Assembly: GCA_902826215.1 (NCBI GenBank)
Contig: CADEDY010000004.1
Coordinates: 68,667 to 132,666, forward strand
From: an uncultured Bacteroidota bacterium
GTDB lineage: Bacteria > Bacteroidota > Bacteroidia > Flavobacteriales_F > PHOS-HE28
Direction of reading: 5' to 3'
DNA: 64,000 bases
The translations under genes were made by a program, and so were the position numbers. The notes beneath the pieces were generated by a model that was not told where the DNA came from, made no database searches, and saw nothing but the letters and a program-made list of their open reading frames with translations. Of this stretch, positions 2,427 through 49,700 are shown one piece after another (the first letter of the stretch is position 1; each line of letters starts with the position of its first letter).

Positions 2427-3790
2427 TGGTCTTGCGCGGATCCATCCTTACTTCCGGAAAGTGGCGTGCAGGGCTCCTTTGTGTCGTGCTCTTCCTCTGT
2501 CTCTGGCCTGGACTGAGCGACCACGTGAGCGTGGAATGGGGCATGCGCTACTTCTGGCTCCTGCTACTACCGGTGATCATACGTGTCCGTGAGCCAGGGA
2601 ACTTTTCCTTGCGCTACCTCTTCGTCCTCGCTCCTTTGTTCGCGCTGGCTTTCTGGCTGCCACATCCGCTGTTCCGATTCGGTGTGCTGTTCGCTGCGAT
2701 CTTCCTGGTGATCGAAGCCTTCGTGGGCAAATTGGATCGCTTGGCTCCGGTCTTTGCTGTCCTCGTGGCACCCATCACCCATTACTTCATCAACACCTTC
2801 GGGTTCCACGTGCGATTGAGCATCAGCAAGGTCGTCGCTCGAACATTGAAGAGCATCGACCCGGAGGCGATGGACATCGGCAATGCGCTCATGTACCAGG
2901 GGCAGGAATTCCATGTGGACCCGGAATGCATGGGACTTCGGATGATCACCACTTCCTTGATCGTGACCATGGCGCTCATCGCCCTCCGCGAAAGACGCTT
3001 GAAGACCTCGCTTTCCGAGTTCGCGCTACCTGTTCTCCTGCTCGTGACCTTCGTGTTGGTCGCCGTTTCGAACTACGTGCGCATCCTACTGTTGGTGGTC
3101 AGTGCCGCGCCTGCGGGTGGTTTCTGGCATGAAGTCATCGGGTTGATCAGCTGGCTGCTCTTCGTGTTGCTACCCATGATCCACATTGTGGAGCGTTGGG
3201 ACCGGGTTCGATCCGTTGCCTCAATGACCAAGACCGTGTGGCCGATCTGGAAACAACGTCTTGTCACCACCGCGCTTCTCCCGACCATGCTGGTCGGGAT
3301 GATCCACCCGGTGGTACCAGTGGAGGATGAACGCGACCTCTTCGCTGAGCAATTGAACATACCCGGCTGTGAACGGACCATCCTTCCCAACAACGTGGTG
3401 AGCTTCACCAGTGATCATCTGCAGATCTTCATGAAACCCGGAAAGGCATTCTACAGCAACGACCACCACCCGATGAGCTGTTGGATCGGGAGTGGCTACC
3501 ACTTCACGCACGAAGTCCTCGAACCCTTCCGTGATGGCACGATCTGCTTCGGGCAATTGAGCAATGGCGCATCCACACGGTACTCCGCATGGTGGTATGA
3601 CAATGGTTCCACCCGCACCTGCGGTCAGTTGGAGTGGCGTTGGCTTGCCGCACTTGGCGAAGGTCCGTTCCGGTTGATCAATGTCACGGCCGACACGCCT
3701 CAAGAATTGATGCGGGAGGTATCGCGGCTTTACCGACCGTTGGAGGCTGAAGGGCACCTACTGAAAGGAACGCAGATGACGCTGATGTAG
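2426..3790 (+). CDS. Exosortase (XrtN-like) with a ~170-aa Cys/Trp/His-rich C-terminal extension
   Basis: Polytopic membrane protein (about 8 TM). It contains the exosortase catalytic motif ECMGLRMITTSL (Cys-x-Gly-Leu-Arg), and conserved Arg/His lie downstream. The ATG at 2426 overlaps the TGA of the upstream VIT gene (TGATG), indicating translational coupling. The six-frame track starts the ORF at 2360, but 2426 avoids the gene overlap. Confidence 0.8.
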   Translation: MVLRGSILTSGKWRAGLLCVVLFLCLWPGLSDHVSVEWGMRYFWLLLLPVIIRVREPGNFSLRYLFVLAPLFALAFWLPHPLFRFGVLFAAIFLVIEAFVGKLDRLAPVFAVLVAPITHYFINTFGFHVRLSISKVVARTLKSIDPEAMDIGNALMYQGQEFHVDPECMGLRMITTSLIVTMALIALRERRLKTSLSEFALPVLLLVTFVLVAVSNYVRILLLVVSAAPAGGFWHEVIGLISWLLFVLLPMIHIVERWDRVRSVASMTKTVWPIWKQRLVTTALLPTMLVGMIHPVVPVEDERDLFAEQLNIPGCERTILPNNVVSFTSDHLQIFMKPGKAFYSNDHHPMSCWIGSGYHFTHEVLEPFRDGTICFGQLSNGASTRYSAWWYDNGSTRTCGQLEWRWLAALGEGPFRLINVTADTPQELMREVSRLYRPLEAEGHLLKGTQMTLM

Positions 3791-3870
3791 CGGATCAACG
3801 CTGATCCGCTCAATCCCTCTCTATCTCAGATCTGCGCTCATCAAAACGATCCGCGTCATCCGTGTTCCAT
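3790..3870. repeat. Copy of the ~45-bp 'GAACGC-GATGACGCGGATC' intergenic repeat family, preceded by a near-palindrome GCGGATCAACGCTGATCCGC
   Basis: The sequence tcatcaaaacgatccgcgtcatccgtgttccat is the reverse complement of atggaacacggatgacgcggatcgttttgatga. This matches the copies at 7888, 7968, 8421, 9328, 9444 and 10279. Confidence 0.6.
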
Positions 3871-3871
3871 C

Positions 3872-4315
3872 CTACTCCCCGATATCCTCGTTCCACAGCT
3901 CCGGCTCGGCTGCGATGAACTCCTCCATCATCTGCACACACTCCGGCAGGTTCAGGTCGATCACCTCCACGCCGTGGCTCTCCATGAAGGCCTTGGCACC
4001 AGCGAATGTGCGGCTCTCGCCCACGATCACCTTCTTGATCTTGAACTGCACGATGGTGCCCGCGCACATGTAGCAGGGCATCAGCGTCGAATAGATCGTG
4101 GTGCCCTTGTAGCTGCCGATGCGGCCCGCGTTGTTCAGACAGTCCATCTCGCCATGCAGGATCGGGTTCTTCTCCTGCACGCGCTTGTTGTGCCCCCGTG
4201 CGATGATCTTGCCGTCGCGCACCAGCACCGAGCCGATCGGGATACCGCCCTGTGAACGGCCCAAGCGGGCTTCGTCGATGGCGGCTTGCATGTGGGGGTC
4301 CATGGTGTAGGTCAT
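3872..4315 (-). CDS. CDA-fold nucleoside deaminase, Fcy1-like; probably a cytosine deaminase feeding the pyrimidine catabolic pathway
   Basis: Zinc-ligand motifs HGE (…NPILHGEMDCLNNAG…) and PCYMCAG. About 147 aa, comparable to the ~158-aa yeast Fcy1 as recalled. Located inside the pyrimidine-catabolism operon. Confidence 0.7.
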   Translation of the reverse strand: MTYTMDPHMQAAIDEARLGRSQGGIPIGSVLVRDGKIIARGHNKRVQEKNPILHGEMDCLNNAGRIGSYKGTTIYSTLMPCYMCAGTIVQFKIKKVIVGESRTFAGAKAFMESHGVEVIDLNLPECVQMMEEFIAAEPELWNEDIGE

Positions 4316-4584
4316 TTATCCGTTACATCAGCCCGAAGCACTCCAGCGTCATTCTTTCCACACATGCCGCAATACTCGGACTCATTCTTCTTGTTGTCAC
4401 ACCACTTACATCCCTTCGGATTCTTCAATGGAAATAGATGAACTATGAAGTAGCCGAATATGGGCGTGGCCAAGACGCAAATGGCCAAGGCCCCTGCAAA
4501 ACCACATGTTCGCGGTCGTCCATCCTGCCACGCCATCCCAACAACTAAGACAAGGAAAATGACACCTATGATGTAGTCCATCAA
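4312..4584 (-). CDS. Small membrane protein with a C-terminal CxxC..CxxC zinc-ribbon (hypothetical)
   Basis: Two predicted TM helices are followed by CKWCDNKKNESEYCGMCGK. Its stop overlaps the start of the deaminase (ATGA), and it sits between preA and the deaminase gene. Confidence 0.45.
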   Translation of the reverse strand: MMDYIIGVIFLVLVVGMAWQDGRPRTCGFAGALAICVLATPIFGYFIVHLFPLKNPKGCKWCDNKKNESEYCGMCGKNDAGVLRADVTDK

Positions 4585-4597
4585 ACTTGTGATCTGG

Positions 4598-5947
4598 TTA
4601 CCCTTTGTAGTGCCTTGGCTTCTTCGTCACCAACGCCTCCGCTGGCTCCGGCACCCAATGATGCAGCCCACCAGCCAGCGGATCGTCAAACGTCTTCGGA
4701 ATGTTCCCTGCCGCCGTGCGCTCACCCCAAGTCAGTTGCTCCTTGCCGTCATCGCGGCGCTCCATGGTGATGCACTCTTCCACCGGACAAACGATGGAGC
4801 AGAGGTTGCAGCCCACGCAGTTCTCCTCGATGATGCTCGGAATGCGGATCAGCGGGTCGCTGGATAGACCGATGGCCTGGTGCGCACCGTCCTCGCAGGC
4901 GGTGTAGCACAGCTGGCAGCCGATGCACTTGTCGGCGTTGATCTCCGCGACGACCTTGTACTTCAGGTTGAGGTCCTCCCAATGCACGATGTTCGGCAGC
5001 GCCTTGCCCCGGAAATCATCCAAGGTCTTGAAGCCCTTCTCGTCCATGTAGCGCTCTAGGCCTGACTTGAGATCGCGGATGATGCCGAAGCCGTAGTGCA
5101 TGACCGCAGTGCAGACTTGCACCGAGGTGGCACCGAGCAGAATGAACTCCGCCGCATCGCGCCAGTTCTCGACACCACCTATACCGCTGATGGGTATTCC
5201 CACTTGCTTGTCCTGCGCACAGTTCTTCAGCATGTTCAAGGCGATCGGCTTCACGGCCGGACCGCAGTAGCCGCCGTTCGTGCTCTTGCCATCCACGTTG
5301 GGGTATGGCACGAAGGTGTCCAGGTCCACGCCCACCACACTTTGGATGGTGTTGATCAAGGAGATCGCATCGCTCCCACCAGCCCTGGCCGCGCGCGCCG
5401 GACGCGTGATATCCGAGATGTTCGGTGTGAGCTTCGTGATCACGGGGATCTTGGCCACTTCCTTCACCCACTCAACAATGGTCTGCAACACCTTCGGCTC
5501 CTGCCCCACCGCGCTGCCCATGCCGCGCTCGCACATGCCGTGGGGGCAACCGAAGTTCAGCTCGATGCCATCGGCGCCAGCGTTCTCCACGTCGCGGACG
5601 ATCTGGTGCCATTCCTCCTTCGTCTCCACCATCAGCGAGGCGATCACCGCATGGTCAGGGAAACGCTTCTTCACCTCGCTGATCTCGCGCAGGTTGTCCT
5701 TTAACGGCCGGTCGGTGATCAGCTCGATGTTGTTGAAACCCACCATGCGCTTGTCCCGGTAGTTCACAGCGCCGTAGCGGCTGCTGACATTCACCACTGG
5801 CACGCCGAGGGTCTTCCACACGGCACCGCCCCAGCCCGCGTCGAAGGCTTTCATGATCTGGTAGCCGCTGTTCGTGGGTGGCGCGGAGGCCAGCCAGAAA
5901 GGGTTCGGGGATTTGATACCGGCGAGATTGGTTCGGAGATCGGCCAT
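4598..5947 (-). CDS. preA: NAD-dependent dihydropyrimidine dehydrogenase subunit PreA (DHOD-like TIM barrel + 2x[4Fe-4S])
   Basis: N-terminus MADLRTNLAGIKSPNPFWLASAPPTN. FMN/DHODH-like core (GADGIELNFGCPHGM). Two C-terminal ferredoxin motifs, CIGCQLCYTACEDG and CVGCNLCSIVCPVEEC. Confidence 0.9.
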   Translation of the reverse strand: MADLRTNLAGIKSPNPFWLASAPPTNSGYQIMKAFDAGWGGAVWKTLGVPVVNVSSRYGAVNYRDKRMVGFNNIELITDRPLKDNLREISEVKKRFPDHAVIASLMVETKEEWHQIVRDVENAGADGIELNFGCPHGMCERGMGSAVGQEPKVLQTIVEWVKEVAKIPVITKLTPNISDITRPARAARAGGSDAISLINTIQSVVGVDLDTFVPYPNVDGKSTNGGYCGPAVKPIALNMLKNCAQDKQVGIPISGIGGVENWRDAAEFILLGATSVQVCTAVMHYGFGIIRDLKSGLERYMDEKGFKTLDDFRGKALPNIVHWEDLNLKYKVVAEINADKCIGCQLCYTACEDGAHQAIGLSSDPLIRIPSIIEENCVGCNLCSIVCPVEECITMERRDDGKEQLTWGERTAAGNIPKTFDDPLAGGLHHWVPEPAEALVTKKPRHYKG

Positions 5948-5949
5948 TT

Positions 5950-5986
5950 GATTAGCTGATTAGCTGATGTGACGATTAGCTGATGG
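5950..5986. repeat. Left terminal inverted repeat of the four-helix-bundle gene cassette (GATTAGCTGAT x3)
   Basis: gattagctgat-tagctgat-gtgac-gattagctgatgg. Its reverse complement, CCATCAGCTAATC, recurs at 6549-6561. Confidence 0.65.
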
Positions 5987-6000
5987 TTGGCGGGCGACAG

Positions 6001-6528
6001 CTACTTGGTGGACTTCGTTCGTTCGATCAAACGTTGCTTACTCGTTCCGATGATCTTATTGAGGATGCGCATGACACGTTGGATGCGGGCGATGAGGTCC
6101 TCATCAATGCCTTTGTCTTGGGTCGCGGCGATGAGGTAATACCAATATTCGGCTTCGTCGGCTTCCTTCAACGCGATCTTCAGCTTGTGAATGAAGTCCT
6201 TCAGGCTTTCGGCATTCTGGGCTTCCTTGGAATTCGCTCCTGGCGAACATGCCGACCGCTCGAACTGGTCGATCAACCATGCGCGCTCACAACCGAGTTG
6301 GTTCACGAATCGGATTGTGCGAACGGACAATTCAAAAGTCTCCTTGAGCAGCAGGTTCTCGCGATACAACGGGCTACCGGAATAGCTGGCCTGCGGCTCG
6401 TGAGCGACCATTGCGTCAAGCTGCTCCACACGATCTTCCTCGATCACAGCATCGCAGATCGCCAGCCAATCGGAGCGATCCCCAGTGATAAACTCATCAT
6501 GCTCTTCCATCATGCCAGGCATTTTCAT
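6001..6528 (-). CDS. Four-helix-bundle protein (TIGR02436-like; 23S rRNA intervening-sequence protein family) inserted between preT and preA
   Basis: The C-terminal half, SKEAQNAESLKDFIHKLKIALKEADEAEYWYYLIAATQ, matches the hallmark of this family. A possible shorter start lies at the ATG at 6411-6409 (MVAHEPQ...). Confidence 0.75.
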   Translation of the reverse strand: MKMPGMMEEHDEFITGDRSDWLAICDAVIEEDRVEQLDAMVAHEPQASYSGSPLYRENLLLKETFELSVRTIRFVNQLGCERAWLIDQFERSACSPGANSKEAQNAESLKDFIHKLKIALKEADEAEYWYYLIAATQDKGIDEDLIARIQRVMRILNKIIGTSKQRLIERTKSTK

Positions 6529-6561
6529 CAGCTGATCCGCTAATCATCCCATCAGCTAATC
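6527..6561. repeat. Right terminal inverted repeat of the four-helix-bundle cassette (ATCAGCTGATCC...CCATCAGCTAATC)
   Basis: It is the reverse complement of the left-hand GATTAGCTGATGG. It contains the cassette gene's start codon (6526-6528) and the preT stop codon (6560-6562). Confidence 0.65.
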
Positions 6562-7882
6562 ACTTCCCCAAGTAGGTATCGATCCCATGCGCCGCCTTCT
6601 TCGCTTCAGCCGCCGCGTTCACCACTTCCACACCACCGTTCATCGCATCCCCTGCAGTAAAGTATTTGGCGTTGGTCGTTTGGAAGCGCTCATTCACCAC
6701 GATGCGCCCTTTCTGATCCAACATGAGGCCTGAGACCTGCTTCAACAGTTCCACTTGTTTTCCTTGACCGGTCCCCAGCAACACCATATCACAAGGTTCC
6801 AGGAACTCGCTGCCCTTGATGGCTTCCAGCTTCCCATTGGCGGAACTGTTCCGGATGAACTTGACCCCGGTCACGGAGCCATTGCCCATCACTTCAACGG
6901 GCGTCACATTGAACAGTGCCTTCGCACCGCTCTTCTTCGCCAGATCGAACTCGAAGGTGTACGCACCCATCTCTTCCGGACCACGACGATAGGCTATCGT
7001 CACGCTCTCCGCGCCCATCCGGCAGCTTTCGCTCGCGGCATCCATCGCTGTGTTTCCGCCCCCGAGCACGATCACCTTGTTGCCGACCGGCGTTGCTTGG
7101 TGCTTGTTCCGCAGTACTTCCACGAACTCAAGCGCACCCATCACGCCTTTCTTGTCTTCGCCGGGAATGCCTAGCGCCGAAGTGCCGCCCAAGCCGATGC
7201 CGATGAAGATGGCGTCATAGTCCTTCTCCAAGCGCTCAAAGTCAACACGACCGGTCACTGGCTTGTTGTAGTGGGCGTTGAAACCGAACTGCTCCTGCAA
7301 GTAAGCGATCTCATCAACCGCTTCTTCGTTGGTGAGCTTGTACGGTGCGACGCCATAAACACACAAGCCACTTGGCTTTTCGCGCGCCTCGTAGATATCC
7401 ACCGCGTGGCCCAACATCCGCAATTCACACGCACAGGAAACACCCGCTGGCCCCGCACCGATCACAGCTACCTTCTTGCCTGTCGGCTTCCCGGTGATGA
7501 AGAGCTTCTTCTTCGCGTGGATCACCTTGTCCGTGGCATGTGCCTGCAAGCGCCCGATCTCGATCGGCTTCACATCGCTTTTGGTGTACACGCAGGCCCC
7601 TTCGCACAGTTCCTCCGTCGGACAGACGTTCCCGCAGGCATGTCCCATCCAGTTGCTGTCGTAGATCGTCTTCGCGGCCCCGTCCTTGTTGTCGTTGTTG
7701 ATCTGCCGGATGAAGGTCGGGATATCGATCCCCGTGGGGCACGCGTTGATGCACGGCGCATCGTAGCAATACAGGCAGCGCGAACTCTCGTAGTACGCCT
7801 CGGTATCGCTCATCAGCGGCTTCTTCGGGTGGAAGTTGGCTGTGAACTCGGCTTCGGTGGTGGGTCGTTTGTATTCTGCCAT
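6560..7882 (-). CDS. preT: Dihydropyrimidine dehydrogenase subunit PreT (glutamate synthase small-subunit-like, FAD/NAD(P) + [4Fe-4S])
   Basis: MAEYKRPTTEAEFTANF...YCYDAPCINACPTGIDIP...CGNVCPTEELCEGAC, followed by Rossmann motifs VAVIGAGPAG and VIVLGGGNTAMD. The six-frame track starts this ORF at 8110, but the 76 codons upstream of 7882 merely translate the tandem DNA repeat, so the start is placed at 7882. Confidence 0.88.
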   Translation of the reverse strand: MAEYKRPTTEAEFTANFHPKKPLMSDTEAYYESSRCLYCYDAPCINACPTGIDIPTFIRQINNDNKDGAAKTIYDSNWMGHACGNVCPTEELCEGACVYTKSDVKPIEIGRLQAHATDKVIHAKKKLFITGKPTGKKVAVIGAGPAGVSCACELRMLGHAVDIYEAREKPSGLCVYGVAPYKLTNEEAVDEIAYLQEQFGFNAHYNKPVTGRVDFERLEKDYDAIFIGIGLGGTSALGIPGEDKKGVMGALEFVEVLRNKHQATPVGNKVIVLGGGNTAMDAASESCRMGAESVTIAYRRGPEEMGAYTFEFDLAKKSGAKALFNVTPVEVMGNGSVTGVKFIRNSSANGKLEAIKGSEFLEPCDMVLLGTGQGKQVELLKQVSGLMLDQKGRIVVNERFQTTNAKYFTAGDAMNGGVEVVNAAAEAKKAAHGIDTYLGK

Positions 7883-7887
7883 GGGGA

Positions 7888-7934
7888 ATGGGACGCAGAT
7901 GGCGCGGATCTTTATGATTTCCGCTGATATGATT
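7888..7934. repeat. ~47-bp repeat element, copy 1 of a tandem pair with 80-bp period (gggacgcagatggcgcggatctttatgatttccgctgatatgatttg)
   Basis: Direct repeat of 7968-8015. Member of the GATGACGCGGATC family. Lies immediately upstream of the preT start. Confidence 0.7.
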
Positions 7935-7967
7935 TGTCGGTGTGGTGCGTGGGGTGCTTCATGCGAT

Positions 7968-8015
7968 GGGACGCAGATGACGCGGATCTTTATGATATCC
8001 GCTGATATGAGTTTG
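7968..8015. repeat. ~47-bp repeat element, copy 2; left inverted repeat of the GxxExxY cassette
   Basis: gggacgcagatgacgcggatctttatgatatccgctgatatgagtttg. The reverse complement of its core is found at 8421-8449. Confidence 0.7.
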
Positions 8016-8409
8016 TATGGACCTTCCTTTTGACTTGGGGCTTCTTGCCGAAGTTCAGGAGCAAGCCGACTTCCACATCGGTGGCTTTGAGGTAGTTGAT
8101 CAACTGGCACTCGTGCTCTTCGCAGATGCTCTCCGCAGCTTTGAGTTCCACGATGACCAGTCCCTCGACGATAAGGTCGGCATAGTAGCTACCGACCTCC
8201 ACGCCATCATAGAACACCGTGATCGGTTGTTGACGCTTTACCTCGAGCCCAGCGGAGATTAACTCATGGAACATGGCGTTCTCATAGACCTTTTCCAAAA
8301 ACCCGTAGCCCAAGGCGTTGTAGACCTTGTAGAACATCTGAATGACCTGCTCGGTCAGTTCAGAATGCATGTAGTTCTCTTTATTCAGATCAGGCATGGC
8401 AATTCGCAT
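7990..8409 (-). CDS. GxxExxY protein (TIGR04256-like, PD-(D/E)XK-related) inserted between the beta-ureidopropionase gene and preT
   Basis: YKVYNALGYGFLEKVYENAMFHEL ... VIVELKAAE ... GLLLNFG match the family signature. The 3' end of the ORF runs into repeat copy 2. Confidence 0.75.
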   Translation of the reverse strand: MRIAMPDLNKENYMHSELTEQVIQMFYKVYNALGYGFLEKVYENAMFHELISAGLEVKRQQPITVFYDGVEVGSYYADLIVEGLVIVELKAAESICEEHECQLINYLKATDVEVGLLLNFGKKPQVKRKVHTNSYQRIS

Positions 8410-8420
8410 TGATCCGCGCT

Positions 8421-8449
8421 CATCATAAAGATCCGCGTCATCAGCGTTC
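8421..8449. repeat. Right inverted repeat of the GxxExxY cassette (catcataaagatccgcgtcatcagcgttc)
   Basis: It is the reverse complement of gaacgctgatgacgcggatctttatgatg, which is copy 2 at 7968. Confidence 0.7.
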
Positions 8450-9315
8450 TACAACTCCGTCAGCCGTCCATACGTCTCCGGCCTCCGATCCCTGAAGAAC
8501 TGCCATGTGCTCCGCACCTCCTCGATCATGTCCAGGTCGAATTCTGCGACGAGCAGTTCATCGTCATCACGCGAGGCTTGCTTGAAGATCTGTCCGCGCG
8601 GATCCACGAAGTAGCTCTGCCCATAGAACTTGCCGAGGTTCCAAGGCTTCTCCTCCCCTACACGGTTGATGCAGCCCATGAAGTAGCCGTTCGCCGCAGC
8701 GTGCGCGGGTTGCTCCAGCTTCCAGAGGTATTCGCTGAGACCAGCCACGGTGGCGCTGGGGTTGTAGACGATCTCGGCACCGTTGAGGCCAAGGCAACGC
8801 GCGCCATCGGGGAAATGGCGGTCGTAGCAGATGTACACGCCCACCTTGGCGTACTTCGTCTGGAACACCGGATAGCCGAGGTTGCCGGGCTTGAAGAAGA
8901 ACTTCTCCCAGAAACCGCTCGTGTGCGGGATGTGGTTCTTGCGGTACTTGCCCAGGTAGGTGCCATCCGCATCGATCACCGCGGCGGTATTGTACAGCAC
9001 GCCGGCCTGCTCCTTCTCGTAGATCGGAACGATGATCACCATGTTGTACTTCTTCGCGTACTGCGCCATCAGCTCCGTGGTGGGACCGGGCACGCTCTCC
9101 GCGCTCTCGTACCATTTCCGGTCCTGGCCCGGGCAGAAGTAGGGCGTGTTGAAGATCTCCTGCAAACACAGGATCTGCACGCCTTGCTGGCCGGCCTTCT
9201 CGATGTACGGGATGTGCTTCTGCACCATCGCATCGATGATCTCCGGTATGGTGCCTTCGCCCTCCGTCTTAGGGAGGCTCATCTGGATAAGGCCGCTCTT
9301 GATGTTCCTCGGCAT
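8449..9315 (-). CDS. Beta-ureidopropionase (N-carbamoyl-beta-alanine amidohydrolase), nitrilase/CN-hydrolase superfamily
   Basis: CN-hydrolase fold with the catalytic Glu-Lys-Cys context (…ILCLQEIF…, …YRKNHIP…, …VGVYICYDRHFPD…). Sits in the pyrimidine-catabolism operon. Confidence 0.85.
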   Translation of the reverse strand: MPRNIKSGLIQMSLPKTEGEGTIPEIIDAMVQKHIPYIEKAGQQGVQILCLQEIFNTPYFCPGQDRKWYESAESVPGPTTELMAQYAKKYNMVIIVPIYEKEQAGVLYNTAAVIDADGTYLGKYRKNHIPHTSGFWEKFFFKPGNLGYPVFQTKYAKVGVYICYDRHFPDGARCLGLNGAEIVYNPSATVAGLSEYLWKLEQPAHAAANGYFMGCINRVGEEKPWNLGKFYGQSYFVDPRGQIFKQASRDDDELLVAEFDLDMIEEVRSTWQFFRDRRPETYGRLTEL

Positions 9316-9327
9316 GGGTTGAATGAT

Positions 9328-9370
9328 TGGAACGCTGATGACGCTGATTTAGGTGATCCGCGCTGATGGG
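9328..9370. repeat. ~45-bp repeat family copy (atggaacgctgatgacgctgatttaggtgatccgcgctgatggg)
   Basis: Direct repeat of 9444-9491. Located immediately upstream of the beta-ureidopropionase start. Confidence 0.6.
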
Positions 9371-9443
9371 TCTTGGGTTGCTGGAACCAATGTTAAGAGG
9401 AAGTACGCGCATTTCCTAGACTGGTCCAGGTGGGTGCGGAAGG

Positions 9444-9491
9444 ATGGAACGCTGATGACGCGGATTAGGCTGATCAACGCGGATCTAAGGG
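9444..9491. repeat. ~45-bp repeat family copy (atggaacgctgatgacgcggattaggctgatcaacgcggatctaaggg)
   Basis: Shares the GAACGCTGATGACGCGGAT core. Confidence 0.6.
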
Positions 9492-9519
9492 ACTGTTGGG
9501 TTGGACTAGGGTGATGTTT

Positions 9520-9610
9520 GGGCGTGCCCCTCGCAAAAGCCTCGGGTCGGGCTATCCGCTATACTCCTCGCTCGTTCCTCGCTGCGGGGTGCCGCTTCTA
9601 TCCCTCAGGC
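9520..9610. repeat. ~95-bp intergenic repeat family, copy 1 (GGGCGTGCCCCTCGCAAAGCCTCGGGTCGGGCTATCCGCTATACTCCTCGC...CTGCGGGGTGCCGCTTCTATCCCTCA)
   Basis: Near-identical to 11771-11897. Matches 14836-14933 and 10136-10262 in reverse complement. Confidence 0.7.
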
Positions 9611-9632
9611 AAGCGCTATAATATCAACCATA

Positions 9633-10121
9633 TCACCGGACTGGCCTATCCAATACTCGCAATGCCGCATCCGTAAGATTCGTCCGAGCAGGATGCCCCA
9701 TTCCTAAGAAGACCTTGAGCTTTTCGCCTAGAGTTTCTGGGGCAAGATCCTCCACGCTCCACATTGCTTGTCCCATCACTTCCGGAGGCCACAGCAACAT
9801 TGTGTCCCACCTTGCTGAACCCGTAAGTCTCGATGCAATTTCAGTCCCCAAGTACTCCGTGAGCAACTGCAACATGACCTCTCTTCCCTTTGCGTAAAAG
9901 GAGACCTGTTTGCAGTCCTTCTTCGACATGTAGAAGACGATAAACCAATCATCAATAACAGGTCCTTCCGCCGTCGTGTATTCTCCGATCAGGCGAACAT
10001 CGCTCAACACGATTTCCCCCACACGTTCGCCTTGGATCTCCCAAATCAGCTTACCACCCTCGCTGAAGACTCTACCCGAGAGTTCGGCTTCATCTCGCTC
10101 GGTCTTGCTCTTGACAGTCAT
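9633..10121 (-). CDS. Hypothetical cytoplasmic protein (no recognisable domain), start placed at MTVKSK
   Basis: 162-aa ORF between the beta-ureidopropionase and dihydropyrimidinase genes, flanked on both sides by copies of the ~95-bp repeat. The longer 198-aa ORF in the track would begin inside a repeat copy. Confidence 0.4.
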   Translation of the reverse strand: MTVKSKTERDEAELSGRVFSEGGKLIWEIQGERVGEIVLSDVRLIGEYTTAEGPVIDDWFIVFYMSKKDCKQVSFYAKGREVMLQLLTEYLGTEIASRLTGSARWDTMLLWPPEVMGQAMWSVEDLAPETLGEKLKVFLGMGHPARTNLTDAALRVLDRPVR

Positions 10122-10135
10122 CCTTGAGGAGTTAT

Positions 10136-10262
10136 GGATTTCGCGTGAGCGATTGCAGCGGAAAGCCCACAGCGCGGTAATCCGCGCGAGGACTTGCAGG
10201 CCCGGGTCGGAGCCCGGGCTGAACTCCAAGCGCGACGGCGAGTCTTCGAGCCGGCACGCCCA
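10136..10262. repeat. ~95-bp repeat family, diverged copy (reverse orientation)
   Basis: The reverse complement ggttttgggcgtgccggctcgaag...gtcctcgcgcg...cgctgtgggctttccgctgcaatcgctcacgcgaaatcc aligns with the copy at 14836-14933. Confidence 0.5.
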
Positions 10263-10278
10263 AAACCTTCCTCATCTG

Positions 10279-10328
10279 CATTTCATATCAGCGTTAATCT
10301 GCCCGATCCGCGTCATCTGCGTTCCATC
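10279..10328. repeat. ~45-bp repeat family copy (reverse complement: gatggaacgcagatgacgcggatcgggcagattaacgctgatatgaaatg)
   Basis: Same GGAACGCAGATGACGCGGATC ... GCTGATATGA organisation as 7888-7934. Confidence 0.6.
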
Positions 10329-10331
10329 TTT

Positions 10332-11711
10332 TCAAAGCATCCCGCTCACCTTGTTCCGCTTCACAAAGCTCCCATACCCCTTCTTGATCCGCACTTCGCC
10401 GTTGTGTACCGCCACCTGGCCGCGGAGGATGGTGGTCTTCACCTTGCCGGTGAGTTGCATGCCTTCGTAGCCGCTGTAGTCCACGTTCATGTGGTGCGTT
10501 TTGGCGCTGAGGGTGTGGCGCTCGTTGGGGTCGAGCAGGATGATGTCCGCGTCGCTGCCGATTCCGATGGTGCCTTTGCGCGGGAACATGCCGAAGATCT
10601 TCGCCGGGTTGGTGGCGGTGACTTCCACGAACTTGTTCACGGTGATGCGCTTCTTGTTCACGCCTTCGCTGAAGAGCAGTTCCATGCGGTGCTCGATGGC
10701 GGGGTGACCGTTCGGGATCTTCGAGAAATCGGCCGAGCCCATGGCCTTCTGCGCCATCATGAAGGGGCAATGGTCGGTGGCCACCACTTGCAAGCTGCCT
10801 TGTTCGATGCCGGCCCAGAGCTGCGTTTGATCCTTTTTCTCGCGTAGCGGCGGGCTCATCACCCACTTGGCGCCGTCGGCCCGTTCGTAGAGCGAGGCAT
10901 CGAGCAGCAGGTATTGGATGCAGGTCTCGGCGAGCACGCGCTGGCCCCGGCGCGCAGCATCGCGCACGGCGTTGAGCGCGCCTTCGCAGGTGAGGTGTAC
11001 GATGTACGCGGGCACGCCAGTGTAGCTGGCCATGTCGCAGAAGCGGTGACTGGCCTCGGCTTCGGTGATCTCCGGCTGGCTGAGGTAGTGGTACAGCGGC
11101 GAGAGCTTGCCTTCGCTGCGATGCTTCTGCACGAGGTAGTCGATCATGTCGCCGTTGGTGGCGTGTACGATCACCATGCCGCCGTGCTCCTTCACCTCCT
11201 GCATCAGGCCCACCATCTGGCGGTCGTCGATCATGAGCGCGCCCTTGTACGCCATGAAGGTCTTGAAGCTGGTGATGCCTTCCTGCTCGATCATCGTGCG
11301 CACTTCCTTCTTCGTGTCGTCGTTGAAATCGGTGACGGCCATGTGGAAGCTGAGGTCGCCGTAGAGGTTGCCGTTCATGCGGCCCTGCCAGCTTTCCAGC
11401 GCGTGGCGCAGGCTCTTGCCTTGTGTTTGCAGGATGAAGTCGATCACCGTCGTGGTGCCGCCATGCAGCGCGGCCAGCGTGCCGGTCTCGTAGTTGTCGC
11501 TGCTGAAGGTGCCCATGAAGGGCATGTCCAAATGCACGTGCGGATCGATGCCTCCAGGGAGCACGAACTGGCCTTTCGCGTCGATCACTTCGGCGTCGGG
11601 TGCATGCAGATCATGCCCGATGGCCTTGACGTGTTCGCCTTCGATGAGGACGTCGGCGCGGTGGAAGTCGGCGGCGGTGACGACGGTTCCGTTCTTGATG
11701 AGGAGGCTCAT
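10332..11711 (-). CDS. Dihydropyrimidinase / D-hydantoinase (cyclic amidohydrolase)
   Basis: MSLLIKNGTVVTA...VLPGGIDPHVHLDMPFMGT...: metal-binding HxH and the amidohydrolase-superfamily pattern. 459 aa. Confidence 0.9.
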   Translation of the reverse strand: MSLLIKNGTVVTAADFHRADVLIEGEHVKAIGHDLHAPDAEVIDAKGQFVLPGGIDPHVHLDMPFMGTFSSDNYETGTLAALHGGTTTVIDFILQTQGKSLRHALESWQGRMNGNLYGDLSFHMAVTDFNDDTKKEVRTMIEQEGITSFKTFMAYKGALMIDDRQMVGLMQEVKEHGGMVIVHATNGDMIDYLVQKHRSEGKLSPLYHYLSQPEITEAEASHRFCDMASYTGVPAYIVHLTCEGALNAVRDAARRGQRVLAETCIQYLLLDASLYERADGAKWVMSPPLREKKDQTQLWAGIEQGSLQVVATDHCPFMMAQKAMGSADFSKIPNGHPAIEHRMELLFSEGVNKKRITVNKFVEVTATNPAKIFGMFPRKGTIGIGSDADIILLDPNERHTLSAKTHHMNVDYSGYEGMQLTGKVKTTILRGQVAVHNGEVRIKKGYGSFVKRNKVSGML

Positions 11712-11770: not shown

Positions 11771-11897
11771 GGGCGTGCCCCTCGCAAAGCCTCGGGTCGG
11801 GCTATCCGCTGTACTCCTCGCAGGGGCGATGCATGCTCTTCCTTCGGGCGAAGCATGCTTCGCCCCTACTGCGGGGTGCCGCTCCTATCCCTCACGC
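11771..11897. repeat. ~95-bp repeat family, copy 2, carrying an internal 16-bp perfect palindrome GCGAAGCATGCTTCGC
   Basis: gggcgtgcccctcgcaaagcctcgggtcgggctatccgctgtactcctcgc...ctgcggggtgccgctcctatccctcacgc. The 3' end of the element supplies the last codons and the TAG stop of the NCS1 permease. Confidence 0.7.
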
Positions 11898-13552
11898 AGC
11901 ACACGTTTACCCTTCAACGCCCAATACACGGCGAACGCCACACCCGTTCCGCTGAACCACGAGAGCGTGTAGAGGACCTCCAGCGGCTTCACCCAATATC
12001 CGATGATGGCAACGAACACACCAGCCACCAAAGCCACGATGGCTGCTCTGTTCACACCCGCGTGCGGTCCATCCTCCATGTACAGGTCAGCGATCACCAA
12101 CGTGCGCTTGCGGATGATAAAGTAGTCGCAGAGCAGGATGCCGAGCACGGGGCCGAGCAGTCCGCTGATGAAGATGAGGATCCCGCTGATCTCGTTCATC
12201 AACCACCACGGGCAGATGATGATGCCAACGAGTCCCGCCATAACACCACCAACACGGAAGCTGATCTTCTTCGGGAACAAATTGCTGAACGCATTCGCCG
12301 GTGCGATCACGTTCGCCGCGATGTTGGTGCTGAGCGTAGCGATGAGCATGGCGATCTGCGCGAAGATGACCACACCCGGGCTCTTGAACTTGTCCACCAG
12401 CGAGACCGGATCCCACGGCGCATCCTCGGCGATGAGCACATCATCGAAGGCCACCACGGCCGCGCTGGTGACGAAGATGCCCACGAACGAATAGAAGAGC
12501 ATGGTTCCCGGTAGCCCGATGAACTGTCCGGCTAACTGGTCCTTCTGGCTCTTCGCATGGCGTGTGATGTCGGAAATACTGATGGACATGGTGGCCCAGA
12601 AACCGACCATGGCGGTGAACCACATCAGGTATTGCCAATAGCCGACCTCGCTTGCACCGGCACTGTCGGCCTTGAACTCCAGCTTGGCCGACTCATGACC
12701 TTCCGCATCCTTGAACTGGATTTGCACCTGCGCATCCATGCCGATGTTGATTGCGGTCATCGGCGCGGTGATCGGCATCCATTCGCCCGGCCTGGTTTCG
12801 TTTTGCCTTGGATAGCTCAACCGATAGTGTGTGGCCTTCGGCGTGCCATCGGTGTTCAAGAGCGGTGACAATTGTAACGTGCGGCCGGGCGCATCGGCGT
12901 AAGGCAACTGCGTGATCGTGCTTTGCTGTAATTGCTTCCCTTGCTCCAATGCATTGGCAAAACCACCCGCACTATTCGCGCCCCACACGATCAGCACGAT
13001 GCCGATCAGGATCAATATCGGCGCACTCCAGTCCTCGAGCCAACGGATGCTCTCGGTGCCTTTCCAGATGAACCAGATGTTGATGAGCCAGAACACGCCG
13101 AAGCAGATGAACTTGCCGATGCTCAGCGCCACATCACCTTCCTGACCTGTTGCCGCGTTCCAGATGGAGTAGATCGCCAGCCCACCGATCCACGTCTGCA
13201 CACCGAACCAGCCGCAGGCGACGATGGCGCGGAGCAGACTCGCGATATGGATGCCTTGCGTCCCGAAAGCCGCTCGCCCTTGCACGGGGAACGGGATACC
13301 GTACTTCACGCCCGCATGACCGTTCAATACCATCGGTATGGTGATCACCAAGTTCGCCAGGCCGATGATCACCAAGGCCGCCCGCCAGCTGAGGCCCGCA
13401 CGCATCATGTACGAAGCGAGCAGGTAGGTGGGGATGCACACCGCCATGCCCACCCACAGCGCGGCGAGGTTCCACTTGGTCCAGGTGCGCTGCTCGGGCG
13501 GGATGGGCGCGAGGTCCGGGCTGTAGAGCGGGGAACGGGTGATATCTTCCAT
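11885..13552 (-). CDS. NCS1-family nucleobase:cation symporter (cytosine/uracil/hydantoin permease-like) with a ~95-aa hydrophilic insertion
   Basis: 12 predicted TM segments with the NCS1 pattern (…WNLAALWVGMAVCIPTYLLAS…, …GIPFPVQGRAAFG…). Start assigned to MEDITRSP at 13552. An alternative ATG 15 codons upstream at 13597 is not excluded. Confidence 0.8.
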   Translation of the reverse strand: MEDITRSPLYSPDLAPIPPEQRTWTKWNLAALWVGMAVCIPTYLLASYMMRAGLSWRAALVIIGLANLVITIPMVLNGHAGVKYGIPFPVQGRAAFGTQGIHIASLLRAIVACGWFGVQTWIGGLAIYSIWNAATGQEGDVALSIGKFICFGVFWLINIWFIWKGTESIRWLEDWSAPILILIGIVLIVWGANSAGGFANALEQGKQLQQSTITQLPYADAPGRTLQLSPLLNTDGTPKATHYRLSYPRQNETRPGEWMPITAPMTAINIGMDAQVQIQFKDAEGHESAKLEFKADSAGASEVGYWQYLMWFTAMVGFWATMSISISDITRHAKSQKDQLAGQFIGLPGTMLFYSFVGIFVTSAAVVAFDDVLIAEDAPWDPVSLVDKFKSPGVVIFAQIAMLIATLSTNIAANVIAPANAFSNLFPKKISFRVGGVMAGLVGIIICPWWLMNEISGILIFISGLLGPVLGILLCDYFIIRKRTLVIADLYMEDGPHAGVNRAAIVALVAGVFVAIIGYWVKPLEVLYTLSWFSGTGVAFAVYWALKGKRVLREG

Positions 13553-46772: not shown

Positions 46773-49700
46773 TACATGAAGCACTCTCCTCATCAATCGT
46801 TACTAAGCAGTATCTGTTCGCGGATCCTGTTAGTGGCTGGTCTGTTCTTGGCGCAGATCGCCGAAGCTCAAGTTGTGAGCACATTTACAAGCTCTGGCAC
46901 GTTCACGGTACCTGCGGGTGTAAGCCAGGTGACCGTTGAATGCTGGGGTGCAGGTGGCCGCGGTGGGATGCGCACGAACAATGGAAGAGGCGGTGGAGGT
47001 GGAGGAGGTGCCTATTCACGCTCGGTGATCTCGGTCATTGAAGGAAATTCGTATACGGTTACGGTGGGTAGTGGTAGCTCTGATACCGACCCAGGTGAAG
47101 ACTCTTGGTTCGGCACCGCCACCACGGTCATGGCCAAAGGTGGTGCATCGGCTGGCAACAATAGTTCCAGCGGAGCCAATGGCGGTAGCGCCGGAGCTTC
47201 TATCGGAACGGTGAAATTCAGTGGTGGAAATGGCGCGAATGCACCTGGCAGTACGGGTGGCGGAGGAGGATCCTCAGCCGGTACCGCAACGAACGGCGCC
47301 AATGGCAGTAACCAATCCGGTGGTAATGCACCAGCTGGGGGTGGGGATGGTGGAGATGGCGGAAATGGAACATTTGACGCTGGCGATGCGGGTAGTGTTC
47401 CTGGTGGTGGTGGTGGTGGCGCAGAGCGCGGCTGCTGTATCACTGTGAATGGTGGTGCCGGTGCCAATGGCCGCGTTATCCTGACCTATACACCCTGCAG
47501 CGGACCCATTGTGTCCGTTCTGCCAAGCGCCCCATCGATCTGTAGTGGTTCAAGCATAGTGCTAACAGCCTCTGGTGCAAGTGCTGGATACACTTGGTCT
47601 CCAGCTATTGGTCTTAGTGGAACTAGCGGTGCAGTAGTTACGGCCAACCCGACCACGACCACGACCTATACTCTTACCGGTACGAATACGGGATGCTCGA
47701 TCACGGGGTCTGCCACAGTGACCGTGACTGTTGATGAGGCGCCTACGGCCCCGGTGATGAGCCCGACGAGTGTCACCACTTGTTCTGGTTCGTCCACTGT
47801 GCTGGGTGCAGCCTCTAGCACGAACGCAACGCTGTCCTCCTCACCGTTCAACAGTACAGGCGGACCAGCTACGACAACCACTGGAGCGGCCCAAAATGCC
47901 TCTATCTATCCTTGGAACATCAGCGTGAGCGGCTTACCGACCACTGGAGTCACCGTTGAATCCGTAACGATCAACGGCATTACGCACACCTTTCCGGATG
48001 ACCTGGACATTCTACTTCAGTCTCCAACTGGCACGAACGTGATCTTGATGTCTGATGCTGGAGCAGGAGATAACATCACGGGCCTTACATACACCTTCAA
48101 GGACGGAGAAGTGTCACTTCAGGACGCTGTCACCAACCCGAGCGGAACTTACAGCCCATCGAACTACACCGGCACAGGCGATGAAACATGGTCAGCACCG
48201 GGTCCAGGGGGATTAACTCAACCTAGCCCTGCTTTGTCCATGTTCACTGGGAACGTGAATGGCGTATGGAAACTCTTGATCCGTGATGATGAAACTGGAG
48301 ATGCTGGTTCCATCGGAAGTTGGAGCATCACCTTCACGATACCCGCGACCGTATCCTACACCTGGAGCCCCAATGTCGCGTTGAGCAGTACAACAGGTCC
48401 TAGTGTAACAGCTTCACCAACAAGTGACCAATCCTATACGGTAACTGTGTCGCACAACGCGAACGGGTGCACAAGTCAAGGTACGGTGGTTGTCACAGCA
48501 GTAGCGCTTCCTGATGCCGGAAGCAATGGCACCATGGCCATCTGCAGCAACGGTGCTGCGATCGGTCTTCTCTCCCAATTGGGCGGCTCACCTGACGTTG
48601 GTGGCACGTGGTCCGGTCCGAGTGCGGTGATCAGCGGGCTGTACGACCCTTTGACAATGGATCCTGGTACTTATACCTACACGGTTACAGCAGCACCTTG
48701 CACGAACGCCACCGCCGATGTGGTCGTCTCCGAGAACATGGCTACCGCATGGTATGCAGATGATGATGGCGATGGTTTCGGCGACGTCGGCGATGTGCTT
48801 ATGGCTTGCTCGCCTCCTGTAGGGTATGTGGCCAACAACACCGATTGCAACGACAGCCAGATCACTTACGCCGACGCAGATGGCGACGGATTCGGAGCAG
48901 GCGCCCCTACCCCATGTGGTGTGGCGAACAACAGTGATTGCAATGATTCCGCGATCCTTCACGCCGACGTGGACGGTGATGGATTCGGGGCTGCAGCCAA
49001 CGCGCCATGCGGCATAGCGGACAACAGTGATTGTGACGATATGCAATTCCTGTATGTGGATGGCGATGGTGATGGCTACGGAACAGGAGTACCGGTCGCA
49101 TGCGGTGTTCCGAATAACACCGATTGCAACGACACCCAGATCCTCTATGCTGACACCGATGGTGATGGCTACGGGGCCGGAGCACCTGCCGCGTGCGGTG
49201 TGACGAACAACGGTGACAACTGCCCGAATATCGTTGGACTCCAAGGCGATTACTGCGACGTGAACAACGGCTCTGGTCCGTTCCTCTTCGGTCAGATCAA
49301 TGGCAGTTGCCAGTGTGTTGCCGTTCCATGCACCGAAACAGTGACCATGGAGCTACGCACCGATGCGTTGAGCAGTCAAGCTTCTTGGCAGATCCTGTTG
49401 CAAGGCACCAACCAGGTTGTTTGCCAGTTCAGCATTCCGATCAATGGCATCACGAGCCCGATAACCGATAACTGCTGCTTGCCCGTTGGTTGCTACCGAC
49501 TGCGTGTGAACGATAGCGGTGGAGATGGTTTCGTAAGCGGTGGCATCACCGGTGGCTATCAACTGCGTGAAAGCGGACCGACCGGAAGTCGTATCATCGA
49601 CAACCTCGGCAACTTCACCAGCGGATCGACCAGTGCTTTATCATCGACCTATGGCGATGGCGCATTCTGTGTACCCGTTGGAAGCGACCGTCCGATCTTC

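Follow-up and report, generated by a model that had tools for sequence, protein, structure and literature searches.

The stretch of DNA analysed here (the window; 64,000 nt of contig CADEDY010000004.1 from an uncultured Bacteroidota bacterium) raises the question of why a gene for a small four-helix-bundle (4HB) protein, enclosed by inverted repeats, should lie between preT and preA, the two genes of a dihydropyrimidine dehydrogenase. We consider it rather probable that the insert is a cassette of the type known from intervening sequences (IVS) in rRNA, dependent on transcription of the operon and with arms that form an RNA stem. This reading is supported by the lower GC content at third codon positions (GC3) of the cassette gene, empty junctions in relatives, turnover of the slot's contents, co-orientation with the operon, a predicted closing stem and the known anatomy of the Coxiella IVS.

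The repeats were located on both sides of the 4HB gene. Exact copies of GATTAGCTGAT start at plus-strand positions 5950, 5958 and 5974, and its reverse complement is exact at 6551-6561 with one-mismatch copies at 6527 and 6535, confirming the three left-hand copies and the right-hand complement of the original prediction. With up to one mismatch allowed, seven GATTAGCTGAT-type matches were found in 64 kb against 0.83 expected, a count reached in none of 100 shuffles, and a single one-mismatch copy (51051) lies outside the cassette. The arms are built from imperfect GATTAGCT-type 8-nt units. Over 37 nt (5949-5985 and 6526-6562) they are 78% complementary, rising to 89% in a 28-nt register, and an exact 13-mer pair, GATTAGCTGATGG and CCATCAGCTAATC, stands at 5974-5986 and 6549-6561. 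Their alignment scored 13 standard deviations (SD) over shuffled flanks, where, as for every E-value and shuffle z-score given here, shared ancestry among cassettes is uncorrected. The insert is thus a discrete cassette with inverted-repeat bounds at a stop/start junction, as had been proposed.

Both arms merge with the coding signals of the host genes. The preT stop codon, TGA at 6562-6560, is the opening triplet of the 5' arm TGATTAGCTGAT, and in every orthologue this arm likewise furnishes the preT stop, bearing out the suggestion that the repeat supplies it. At the other end the 3' arm finishes with GCTAATCA, followed by a single A and the preA ATG (5947-5945). The preA start is thus 1 nt from the extended 3' arm and 2 nt from the GATTAGCTGAT copy at 5950, correcting the 3 nt first reported. 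The last unit of the 5' arm contains the first in-frame ATG (6528-6526), which opens the longest open reading frame (ORF) and had been taken as the start of the cassette gene. It does lie in the arm, but several orthologues lack it or have it in another frame. The true start is probably near 6513-6508, judging by a conserved ATG-GAR-GAR some 15-18 nt downstream of the 6528 ATG.

The five-unit layout of the 5' arm was the same in 10/10 cassettes of the preT-preA slot, whilst the 3' arm varied from four to six units among orthologues. The spacer unit that departs from GATTAGCT co-varies, as judged by eye, between the two arms of these cassettes (GGGA/TCCC, GGGG/CCCC, GTGT/ACAC), with a near-match only in the window (GGGA against GTGA). 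A role for the arms as all-frame translation stops was also considered. It holds for the window, where TGATTAGCTGA has stops in all three frames, but is not general: over 16 arm types a mean of 2.0 frames contained a stop, compared to 1.74 expected from shuffles.

We then have the RNA itself to consider. When the 641-nt sense RNA was folded, the arms were paired and the cassette closed in both the minimum-free-energy and the centroid structures, and the two arms joined by GAAA gave -39 kcal/mol (z -7.5). Because the tandem units permit two pairing registers, 8 nt apart, any single structure string for the arms is arbitrary. A search of 3500-10500 against Rfam assigned the arms to no known RNA family (a chance snoRNA match had E 0.34) and found no rRNA.

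The identity of the cassette protein is clear. It matches TIGR02436 with 69.3 bits (cut-off 24; E 2.9e-19) over residues 62-163, and a profile from 44 homologues retrieved PDB entry 2RLD (BT_0352, 'S23 ribosomal protein family') with E 8e-29. An AlphaFold2 monomer model (pLDDT 85.5, pTM 0.82) showed a four-helix core (residues 59-78, 83-103, 109-136 and 143-174) and an extra N-terminal helix (18-37). Foldseek ranked 2RLD first (TM-score on target 0.82), followed by 2GSC and then 4DWL, the Avd protein of diversity-generating retroelements (DGRs); 8UB7, in which Avd is part of an RNA-protein complex, was also among the matches. Taken together, the TIGR02436 score, the profile match to 2RLD and the predicted fold make membership of PF05635/TIGR02436 secure, in agreement with the 175-codon TIGR02436-like gene of the original prediction. 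The profile search detected only PF05635/TIGR02436 in this protein and no nuclease domain.

The same protein family and the same arm architecture are found in rRNA, which upholds the proposed link to intervening sequences. The IVS in the 23S rRNA of Coxiella burnetii is 428 nt long and lies in helix 45. Its S23p ORF is enclosed by terminal inverted repeats that pair over 28 bp, GACAGAT heptamers stand in two or three tandem copies just upstream of the ORF, and RNase III cuts the stem (PMC4990558). Like the 23S rRNA IVSs of Coxiella, Leptospira, Brucella and Xanthomonas, the window cassette combines a PF05635/TIGR02436 (S23p) ORF in sense orientation, a terminal inverted-repeat stem of about 28 bp, tandem 7-8-nt direct repeats of variable number in the arm upstream of the ORF, and a patchy distribution. 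It differs in lying at an operon junction in mRNA rather than in rRNA, in having arms that overlap a stop codon and abut a start codon, and in the strong purifying selection on its ORF; that of Coxiella is in decay and seems not to be translated. RNase III cleavage, established for Coxiella, is only presumed for the window.

On this model, the unit is a promoter-less 4HB (S23/IVP, Avd-like) gene with its own pair of inverted arms, placed in sense orientation in the 5-8-nt gap between preT and preA. Read-through from the operon would provide for its transcription, and in the resulting RNA the arms would pair into a stem of about 28-37 bp, looping out the 4HB message and bringing the preT stop and the preA start together. 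Such a stem would be a likely RNase III substrate, by analogy with the 23S rRNA IVSs of Coxiella and Leptospira, and processing could limit damage to the host transcript. Since the base of the stem would join the preT stop to the preA start, we speculate that it might even keep termination-reinitiation coupling across 615 nt. Homologous recombination in the conserved genes on either side, more than transposition, would account for most of its spread and loss, possibly with help from nucleases such as the GxxExxY protein encoded next door.

We compared the junction in relatives (loci labelled L plus a number) from metagenome contigs and metagenome-assembled genomes (MAGs); a single bacterial order, represented by MAGs and short contigs, supplied most of this evidence, and a single operon much of it. 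An identical 4HB protein was encoded on four metagenome contigs in the same gene context, and 'Flavobacteriales bacterium' MAGs encode proteins 84-90% identical to it, likewise at the preT-preA junction and with arms of the GATTAGCT type. A PreA scan limited to one genome per species gave 80 loci with PreA 96-81% identical, their records labelled 'MAG: Flavobacteriales bacterium' and mostly from activated sludge. Cassette and arms alike are common to at least nine species-level MAGs (L005, L009, L010, L015, L020, L023, L026, L032 and L097). The junction is empty in 14 or more genomes, among them the two whose PreA is most similar (96% identity), and there preT and preA of an intact operon are 5-8 nt apart, matching the expectation that relatives would have the junction without the insert.

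Filled and empty sites were then compared. Empty sites read TAGGCC between AAA and ATG, TAGTC between AGA and ATG (L012), TAAAGGCC between AAG and ATG, or TAA AGGCC between AAG and ATG (L033); the filled site reads AAG, then TGATTAGC through to GCTAATCA, then A and ATG. Filled and empty sites have no duplicated bases in common, so that the comparison proposed to define any target-site duplication revealed none, and empty sites showed no footprint. Instead, the stop codon and spacer are replaced and there is no simple insertion point. A classical DNA transposon, or an element resembling a miniature inverted-repeat transposable element, in which the arms are terminal inverted repeats for a trans-acting transposase and the 4HB gene is a passenger, would explain the inverted termini and the presence/absence polymorphism, and an IS110 transposase does lie near the operon in L009. 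Without a target-site duplication or a linked transposase, and with arms particular to each cassette and one copy in 64 kb, such an element is nonetheless highly improbable. The arms are tandem arrays of variable unit number, and cassettes of one genome differ in arm sequence, so that recognition of all of them is beyond any single transposase.

The contents of the slot change readily. More distant 4HB genes with other arms occupy it in L036, L037, L056, L064 and L072, and a HicB-like/HicA toxin-antitoxin pair does so in four species (L016, 4520-5000; L019; L031; L039; HicA_toxin E 6e-10). The ORFs of these last four loci were examined as decayed 4HB genes and rejected, as they have no residual 4HB similarity. 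In other relatives the slot contains larger genes of unrelated kinds, a hairpin without a gene, or a solo array whose units are 7-8 nt long (L021, L029, L030, L054, L085), and in L039 and L028 the GATTAGCT 3' arm is kept beside preA though the 4HB gene is gone; in L028 it adjoins a gene for a 434-aa BNR/Por-tail protein. Filled, empty and other states are interleaved on the PreT and PreA trees. Four genomes with about 94% identical PreT and 96% identical PreA have four different contents: the window's type of 4HB gene (type A), a type B gene 52% identical to it with AATTAGCGAAT arms, an ORF of unknown kind, and nothing. The slot thus shows gain, loss and replacement among close relatives. The mosaic relationships of PreT and PreA further indicate that recombination through the conserved flanking genes is frequent.

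The cassette is nevertheless old. Its synonymous divergence (dS) is mostly like that of preT and preA (0.7-0.8 compared to 0.6-0.9), and the ratio of nonsynonymous to synonymous divergence (dN/dS) of the 4HB gene against eight orthologues is 0.08-0.15. As at least nine species-level MAGs share it and its dS equals that of its flanks, the cassette is not a recent insertion, and it is under purifying selection. The idea of a precise mobile-cassette insertion into the operon therefore stands as regards empty alleles and turnover, but not as regards recency or precision: the insert is old, selected and without a simple insertion point. GC3 is 0.68 for the cassette gene, compared to 0.75 for preT, 0.83 for preA and 0.86 for the amidase gene.

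Such persistence might instead suggest a domesticated operon component, in which the 4HB protein would serve the PreT/PreA dihydropyrimidine dehydrogenase as accessory factor or regulator and its arms would be a regulatory RNA element of the operon. Stable synteny in the nine or more species-level genomes, dN/dS of about 0.1, dS equal to that of the flanks and a tightly packed gene co-oriented with the operon all fit this explanation. However, the gene is missing from the closest relatives with intact operons, is replaced elsewhere by the 52%-identical 4HB gene with other arms, by HicBA or by unrelated genes, and has a GC3 lower than its host genes. 4HB genes of its clade, with the same arms, are also present in unrelated operons (hmgA-hppD, nuo and Aldedh). 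With junctions empty in some relatives and otherwise filled in others, and with this type of cassette in unrelated operons, a dedicated PreT/PreA factor is very unlikely.

Inverted arms proved characteristic of a class of inserts. The junction next to this one, between the amidase gene and preT, contains a second cassette with a GxxExxY/PDDEXK_3 gene, and all 26 4HB and GxxExxY inserts of these two slots have inverted arms, scoring 7-20 SD over shuffled flanks. Other small gap ORFs and the preA-deaminase gap gave z <4.5. Across all fetched loci, searched with 4HB and GxxExxY profiles built ad hoc for this analysis, z exceeded 6 in 67-75% of 4HB and GxxExxY genes but in 2% of 292 control genes. 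Inserts had the same orientation as their neighbours in 55 cases and the opposite in 8, in a sample dominated by one operon. The arms of every cassette are tandem arrays of 7-9-nt units, and the unit varies (GATTAGCT, GGGTATTGAGTAC, AATATTGAATTTTGAAT, AATGATGAGTGATGAAT, ATTGCTTC and others).

Arm type follows the protein. In a tree of the 4HB core domain the arm units differ clade by clade. Proteins of clade A, which share 43-52% identity with that of the window, have GATTAGC-type arms at unrelated junctions: hmgA-hppD (L212), where the hmgA TGA again opens TGATTAGCCGATTAGCC; between two Aldedh ORFs (L213, L216); between a Cys/Met-PLP enzyme gene (metC-like) and a thiolase gene (L133); and after nuoD (L122). 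For pairs from different loci, protein identity correlated with shared arm 6-mers (Spearman rho 0.56), a value as high being reached in 0/2000 permutations. Since the arms are specific to 4HB and GxxExxY inserts and co-vary with clade across loci, the gene and its arms appear to be inherited or moved as one unit, or to co-evolve. In L213 (1032-3811) and L216 (924-3796) the cassette lies between aldehyde-dehydrogenase-family ORFs of 485-488 and 289-293 aa, downstream of a DeoC aldolase gene; the shorter ORF may be a gene in its own right or the tail of one that the cassette has split. The 3' arm in L212 (2869-3098) has grown to about 25 tandem GCTAATCR/ATTAATCR units and its 5' side has 12, so unit number can vary widely.

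Arrays also occur without a gene. Over 120 metagenome contigs contain GATTAGCT arrays, most of them solo or in the form of gene-less hairpins, which rules out GATTAGCT as a signature unique to the window cassette. Such gene-less hairpins occur in L094, L125, L135 and L150 and not in the window, and a 4HB gene was present on the fetched stretch in 3/80 metagenome loci with GATTAGCT arrays. The GATTAGCT cassette itself is present once in the 64-kb window and, apart from arrays at one other junction, nowhere else in about 800 kb of relatives. The search for further repeat-bounded cassettes thus gave no second GATTAGCT case in 64 kb but many arrays beyond it. These arrays, though widespread, are not non-specific simple sequence because arm type tracks 4HB clade, and an orthologue lacking flanking repeats was not encountered, all ten slot cassettes being armed.

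Several observations weigh against an operon-dependent cassette closed by an RNA stem. Among the mismatches of the arms G·U is favoured on neither strand (25 sense, 27 antisense, 99 transversions); an RNA-wobble signature was therefore rejected, and for lack of it the arms look like DNA-level inverted copies and not like sequences shaped by RNA pairing. The imperfect complementarity of the window arms (78-89%) is a further difficulty, and in their best register the 9 nt ahead of the preA ATG stay unpaired. Decay would be expected of a purely selfish element after fixation for a dS of about 0.7, yet purifying selection is strong, which hints at a function. Evidence of recent exchange is thin: the L003 cassette DNA is 100% identical to that of the window but joined to a preT only 53-85% identical, and the L010 cassette has dS 0.33 compared to 0.8-1.2 in its flanks, but both cases come from short metagenome contigs that may be assembly chimeras. 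Finally, the sample is dominated by one operon of one Bacteroidota order.

The main rival explanation is a cognate protein-repeat system resembling repetitive extragenic palindromic (REP)/REPIN-RAYT or TRAP systems, in which a pentameric 4HB protein would bind specifically to the arms of its own gene, through their 8-nt units, in RNA or in single-stranded DNA. Binding would control the protein's own translation, help to maintain and spread gene-less hairpins, or both, and the arms would exist for recognition by the protein and not mainly as an RNase III stem. The candidate target of the window protein would be (GATTAGCU)5, with GGGUAUUGAGUAC-type arrays as non-cognate. The missing G·U bias fits recognition of sequence over pairing, and long-term purifying selection on the 4HB gene is also in line with this explanation. 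Each 4HB clade keeps its own unit across loci and across genomes of differing GC, gene-less GATTAGCT hairpins and solo arrays occur in many genomes, and GxxExxY-type arms stand at at least five sites around a single GxxExxY gene in the window. Exactly five NGAT units make up the 5' arm in the ten slot cassettes, whilst the family crystals 2RLD and 2GSC have five chains each and are pentameric, and the homologue Avd belongs to an RNA-protein complex. By contrast, the GATTAGCT unit is confined to the cassette within the window. Of the GATTAGCT-array loci, only the 3/80 above have a 4HB gene on the stretch retrieved, the number of units varies elsewhere (12 and about 25 in L212), and co-inheritance of arms and gene explains the clade-arm association equally well. 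We also know of no catalytic motif in 4HB proteins able to move DNA. On this evidence protein recognition is possible but doubtful. It is compatible with the IVS-type reading, as the two are not exclusive.

Extended to both families, the same idea would make the 4HB and GxxExxY proteins each the trans-acting partner of its own family of hairpins with 7-9-nt tandem units, an undescribed class of module; we put this forward tentatively, as an unlikely generalisation. If true, these modules colonise operon stop/start junctions and rRNA helices, where they are known as 'IVS', and the protein binds the array of five units that leads into its own gene. Widespread intergenic arrays of heptamers and octamers in Bacteroidota and Cyanobacteria, such as short tandemly repeated repetitive (STRR) sequences and TAACTGA, would then be gene-less members.

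Known systems share parts of this picture. RAYT genes are reportedly flanked by inverted cognate repeats whose type tracks the clade of the protein, and gene-less REP hairpins are said to lie at intergenic operon sites and to show long-term vertical inheritance and purifying selection. The cassettes are alike in having one gene between inverted short repeats, a repeat type that follows the protein clade, long vertical inheritance and purifying selection; gene-less GATTAGCT hairpins, present in other contigs and not in the window, may be a further parallel to those at intergenic operon sites. Unlike RAYTs, the window gene encodes a four-helix bundle and not an HUH Y1 tyrosine transposase, and its arms are tandem 7-9-nt units and not a single 20-40-nt palindrome.

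Free-standing homing endonuclease genes (T4 seg/mob; LAGLIDADG and GIY-YIG genes in rRNA genes of candidate phyla radiation (CPR) bacteria) resemble the cassette in precise intergenic insertion, absence of a target duplication and patchiness, and L003 and L010, both short metagenome contigs, may contain co-conversion tracts. They also share its niches: PF05635 ORFs are found in rRNA inserts of CPR bacteria at sites otherwise holding homing endonucleases, and the slots neighbouring the 4HB cassettes hold PD-(D/E)XK (GxxExxY) and DUF559 genes. Homing genes differ in that the 4HB protein is without a nuclease fold or motif and inverted arms are not among their features. Avd, a pentamer that binds nucleic acid, has a homologous fold, and slot paralogues gave weak PF22296 matches. 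However, no reverse transcriptase, template repeat or variable repeat was found in or next to the cassette, which is flanked by preT and preA in the window as at every orthologous locus.

In Beggiatoaceae, Cyanobacteria and Bacteroidetes, TAACTGA arrays separate a stop codon, which they often overlap, from the following start codon and have no Shine-Dalgarno sequence (PMC4679880). STRR heptamers and TAACTGA arrays thus resemble the arms in being arrays of 7-8-nt units between stop and start codons, as are the solo arrays of the preT-preA slot, but those reported are direct and not inverted pairs. The text of PMC4679880 does not mention inverted pairing around a 4HB or GxxExxY gene, and '23S' and 'four helix' are absent from it. 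A survey of the PD-(D/E)XK superfamily entered PDDEXK_3 as 'unknown'. The link between this protein family and rRNA IVSs, the anatomy of the Coxiella arms, intergenic heptamer arrays between stop and start codons, and the homology to Avd are thus already published or archived. In open-access full text we found no description of 4HB or GxxExxY genes as cassettes bounded by inverted arrays in operon junctions, nor of arm type tracking protein clade.

The window locus and some 80 relatives thus tie together PF05635, GxxExxY and intergenic tandem repeats. The architecture of the rRNA IVS, an ORF with an inverted array, also occurs at ordinary operon stop/start junctions, mostly in sense. Two questions become testable: whether these proteins recognise their own flanking repeats, and whether the arms are an RNase III 'self-excision' device, which, if true, would let a foreign gene sit in an operon or rRNA without breaking the host. 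To our knowledge, PF05635 and GxxExxY are very large families neither of which has a known function, and the short tandem intergenic repeats of Bacteroidota and Cyanobacteria have been without explanation for decades.

The surrounding cluster for pyrimidine degradation spans 3.8-11.7 kb of the window, with every gene on the minus strand (Table 1).

Table 1. Features of the pyrimidine-degradation cluster and its cassettes, in window coordinates.
Feature	Position	Strand	Details
Amidohydrolase gene	10332-11711	minus	
CN-hydrolase/amidase gene	8449-9315	minus	
GxxExxY/PDDEXK_3 cassette, amidase-preT junction	7888-8453	minus	arms z 15.5
GxxExxY/PDDEXK_3 gene	7990-8409	minus	TIGR04256, E 3e-40
preT-like subunit gene, GltD family (Fer4_20 + Pyr_redox_2), upstream host	6560-7885	minus	
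5' (upstream) arm of 4HB cassette	6526-6562	minus	TGATTAGC TGATGGGA TGATTAGC GGATCAGC TGATG; five NGAT units, 8-nt spacing
4HB ORF, 175 codons, between preT and preA	6001-6528	minus	TIGR02436
3' (downstream) arm of 4HB cassette	5949-5985	minus	CATCAGC TAATCGTCA CATCAGC TAATCAGC TAATCA
preA, NAD-dependent dihydropyrimidine dehydrogenase subunit PreA, downstream host	4598-5947	minus	NF006183 equivalog, E 4e-204
90-codon membrane ORF between preA and deaminase gene	4312-4584	minus	
CMP/dCMP-type deaminase gene, operon end	3872-4315	minus	
Gene-less hairpin just after deaminase gene, GxxExxY-type arms back to back	3765-3871	minus	-46.9 kcal/mol, z -4.7

The arms of the GxxExxY cassette are built on the unit GAACGCnGATGACGCGGATCTTTATGAT (GAACGCnGATGACGCGGATC-type), unlike those of the 4HB cassette. 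Its 5' arm is single (8410-8450) and its 3' arm duplicated (7966-8013 and 7888-7935). Nine good GGAACGCWGATGAC matches were found in 64 kb, all inside 3767-10325. Further copies of this arm type lie at 9327-9374, 9444-9491 and 10275-10328, and a pair brackets an ORF of 198 codons with no Pfam hit (9633-10229); in L005 such arms surround an unrelated SUKH-4 gene. The true start of preT is the ATG at 7885 and not the GTG at 8110; the longer GTG-started 'preT' ORF is an artefact that reads through the arms of the GxxExxY cassette. For annotation, preT starts and stops are easily mis-called at such junctions, as are spurious long ORFs through repeat arrays.

In relatives the amidase-preT slot holds a GxxExxY gene, another 4HB gene, an ORF6N gene, a DUF559 gene or nothing. 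The ORF6N-domain gene (L048, 3032-3592) has no inverted repeat, and the DUF559 endonuclease-family gene (L075, 2740-3315) has a weak, different one (z 4.5); both add to the families of small 'hitch-hiker' genes found in this operon. The 90-codon ORF after preA has a predicted membrane segment, a CxxC...CxxC motif and the lowest GC3 of the cluster (0.54), without a flanking inverted repeat. It was found in L005 and L009 and is missing in L010, L029, L032 and L033, where preA and the deaminase gene abut.

A sub-threshold match to the Flavo-1 RNA lies at 9541-9615 on the minus strand (34.7 bits; gathering score 42), with a second occurrence of the element at 11786-11898. In relatives (L023, 990-1120; L036; L015; L034), inverted Flavo-1-like copies of about 90 nt bracket a hypervariable stretch between the amidohydrolase and amidase genes. 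This stretch has different ORFs in each genome, and a GATTAGCT array follows the amidohydrolase stop codon there. Elsewhere in the window, at 48827-49216, a 93-nt unit is repeated four times in tandem with 63-77% identity, probably a repeat-containing coding region unrelated to the cassette.

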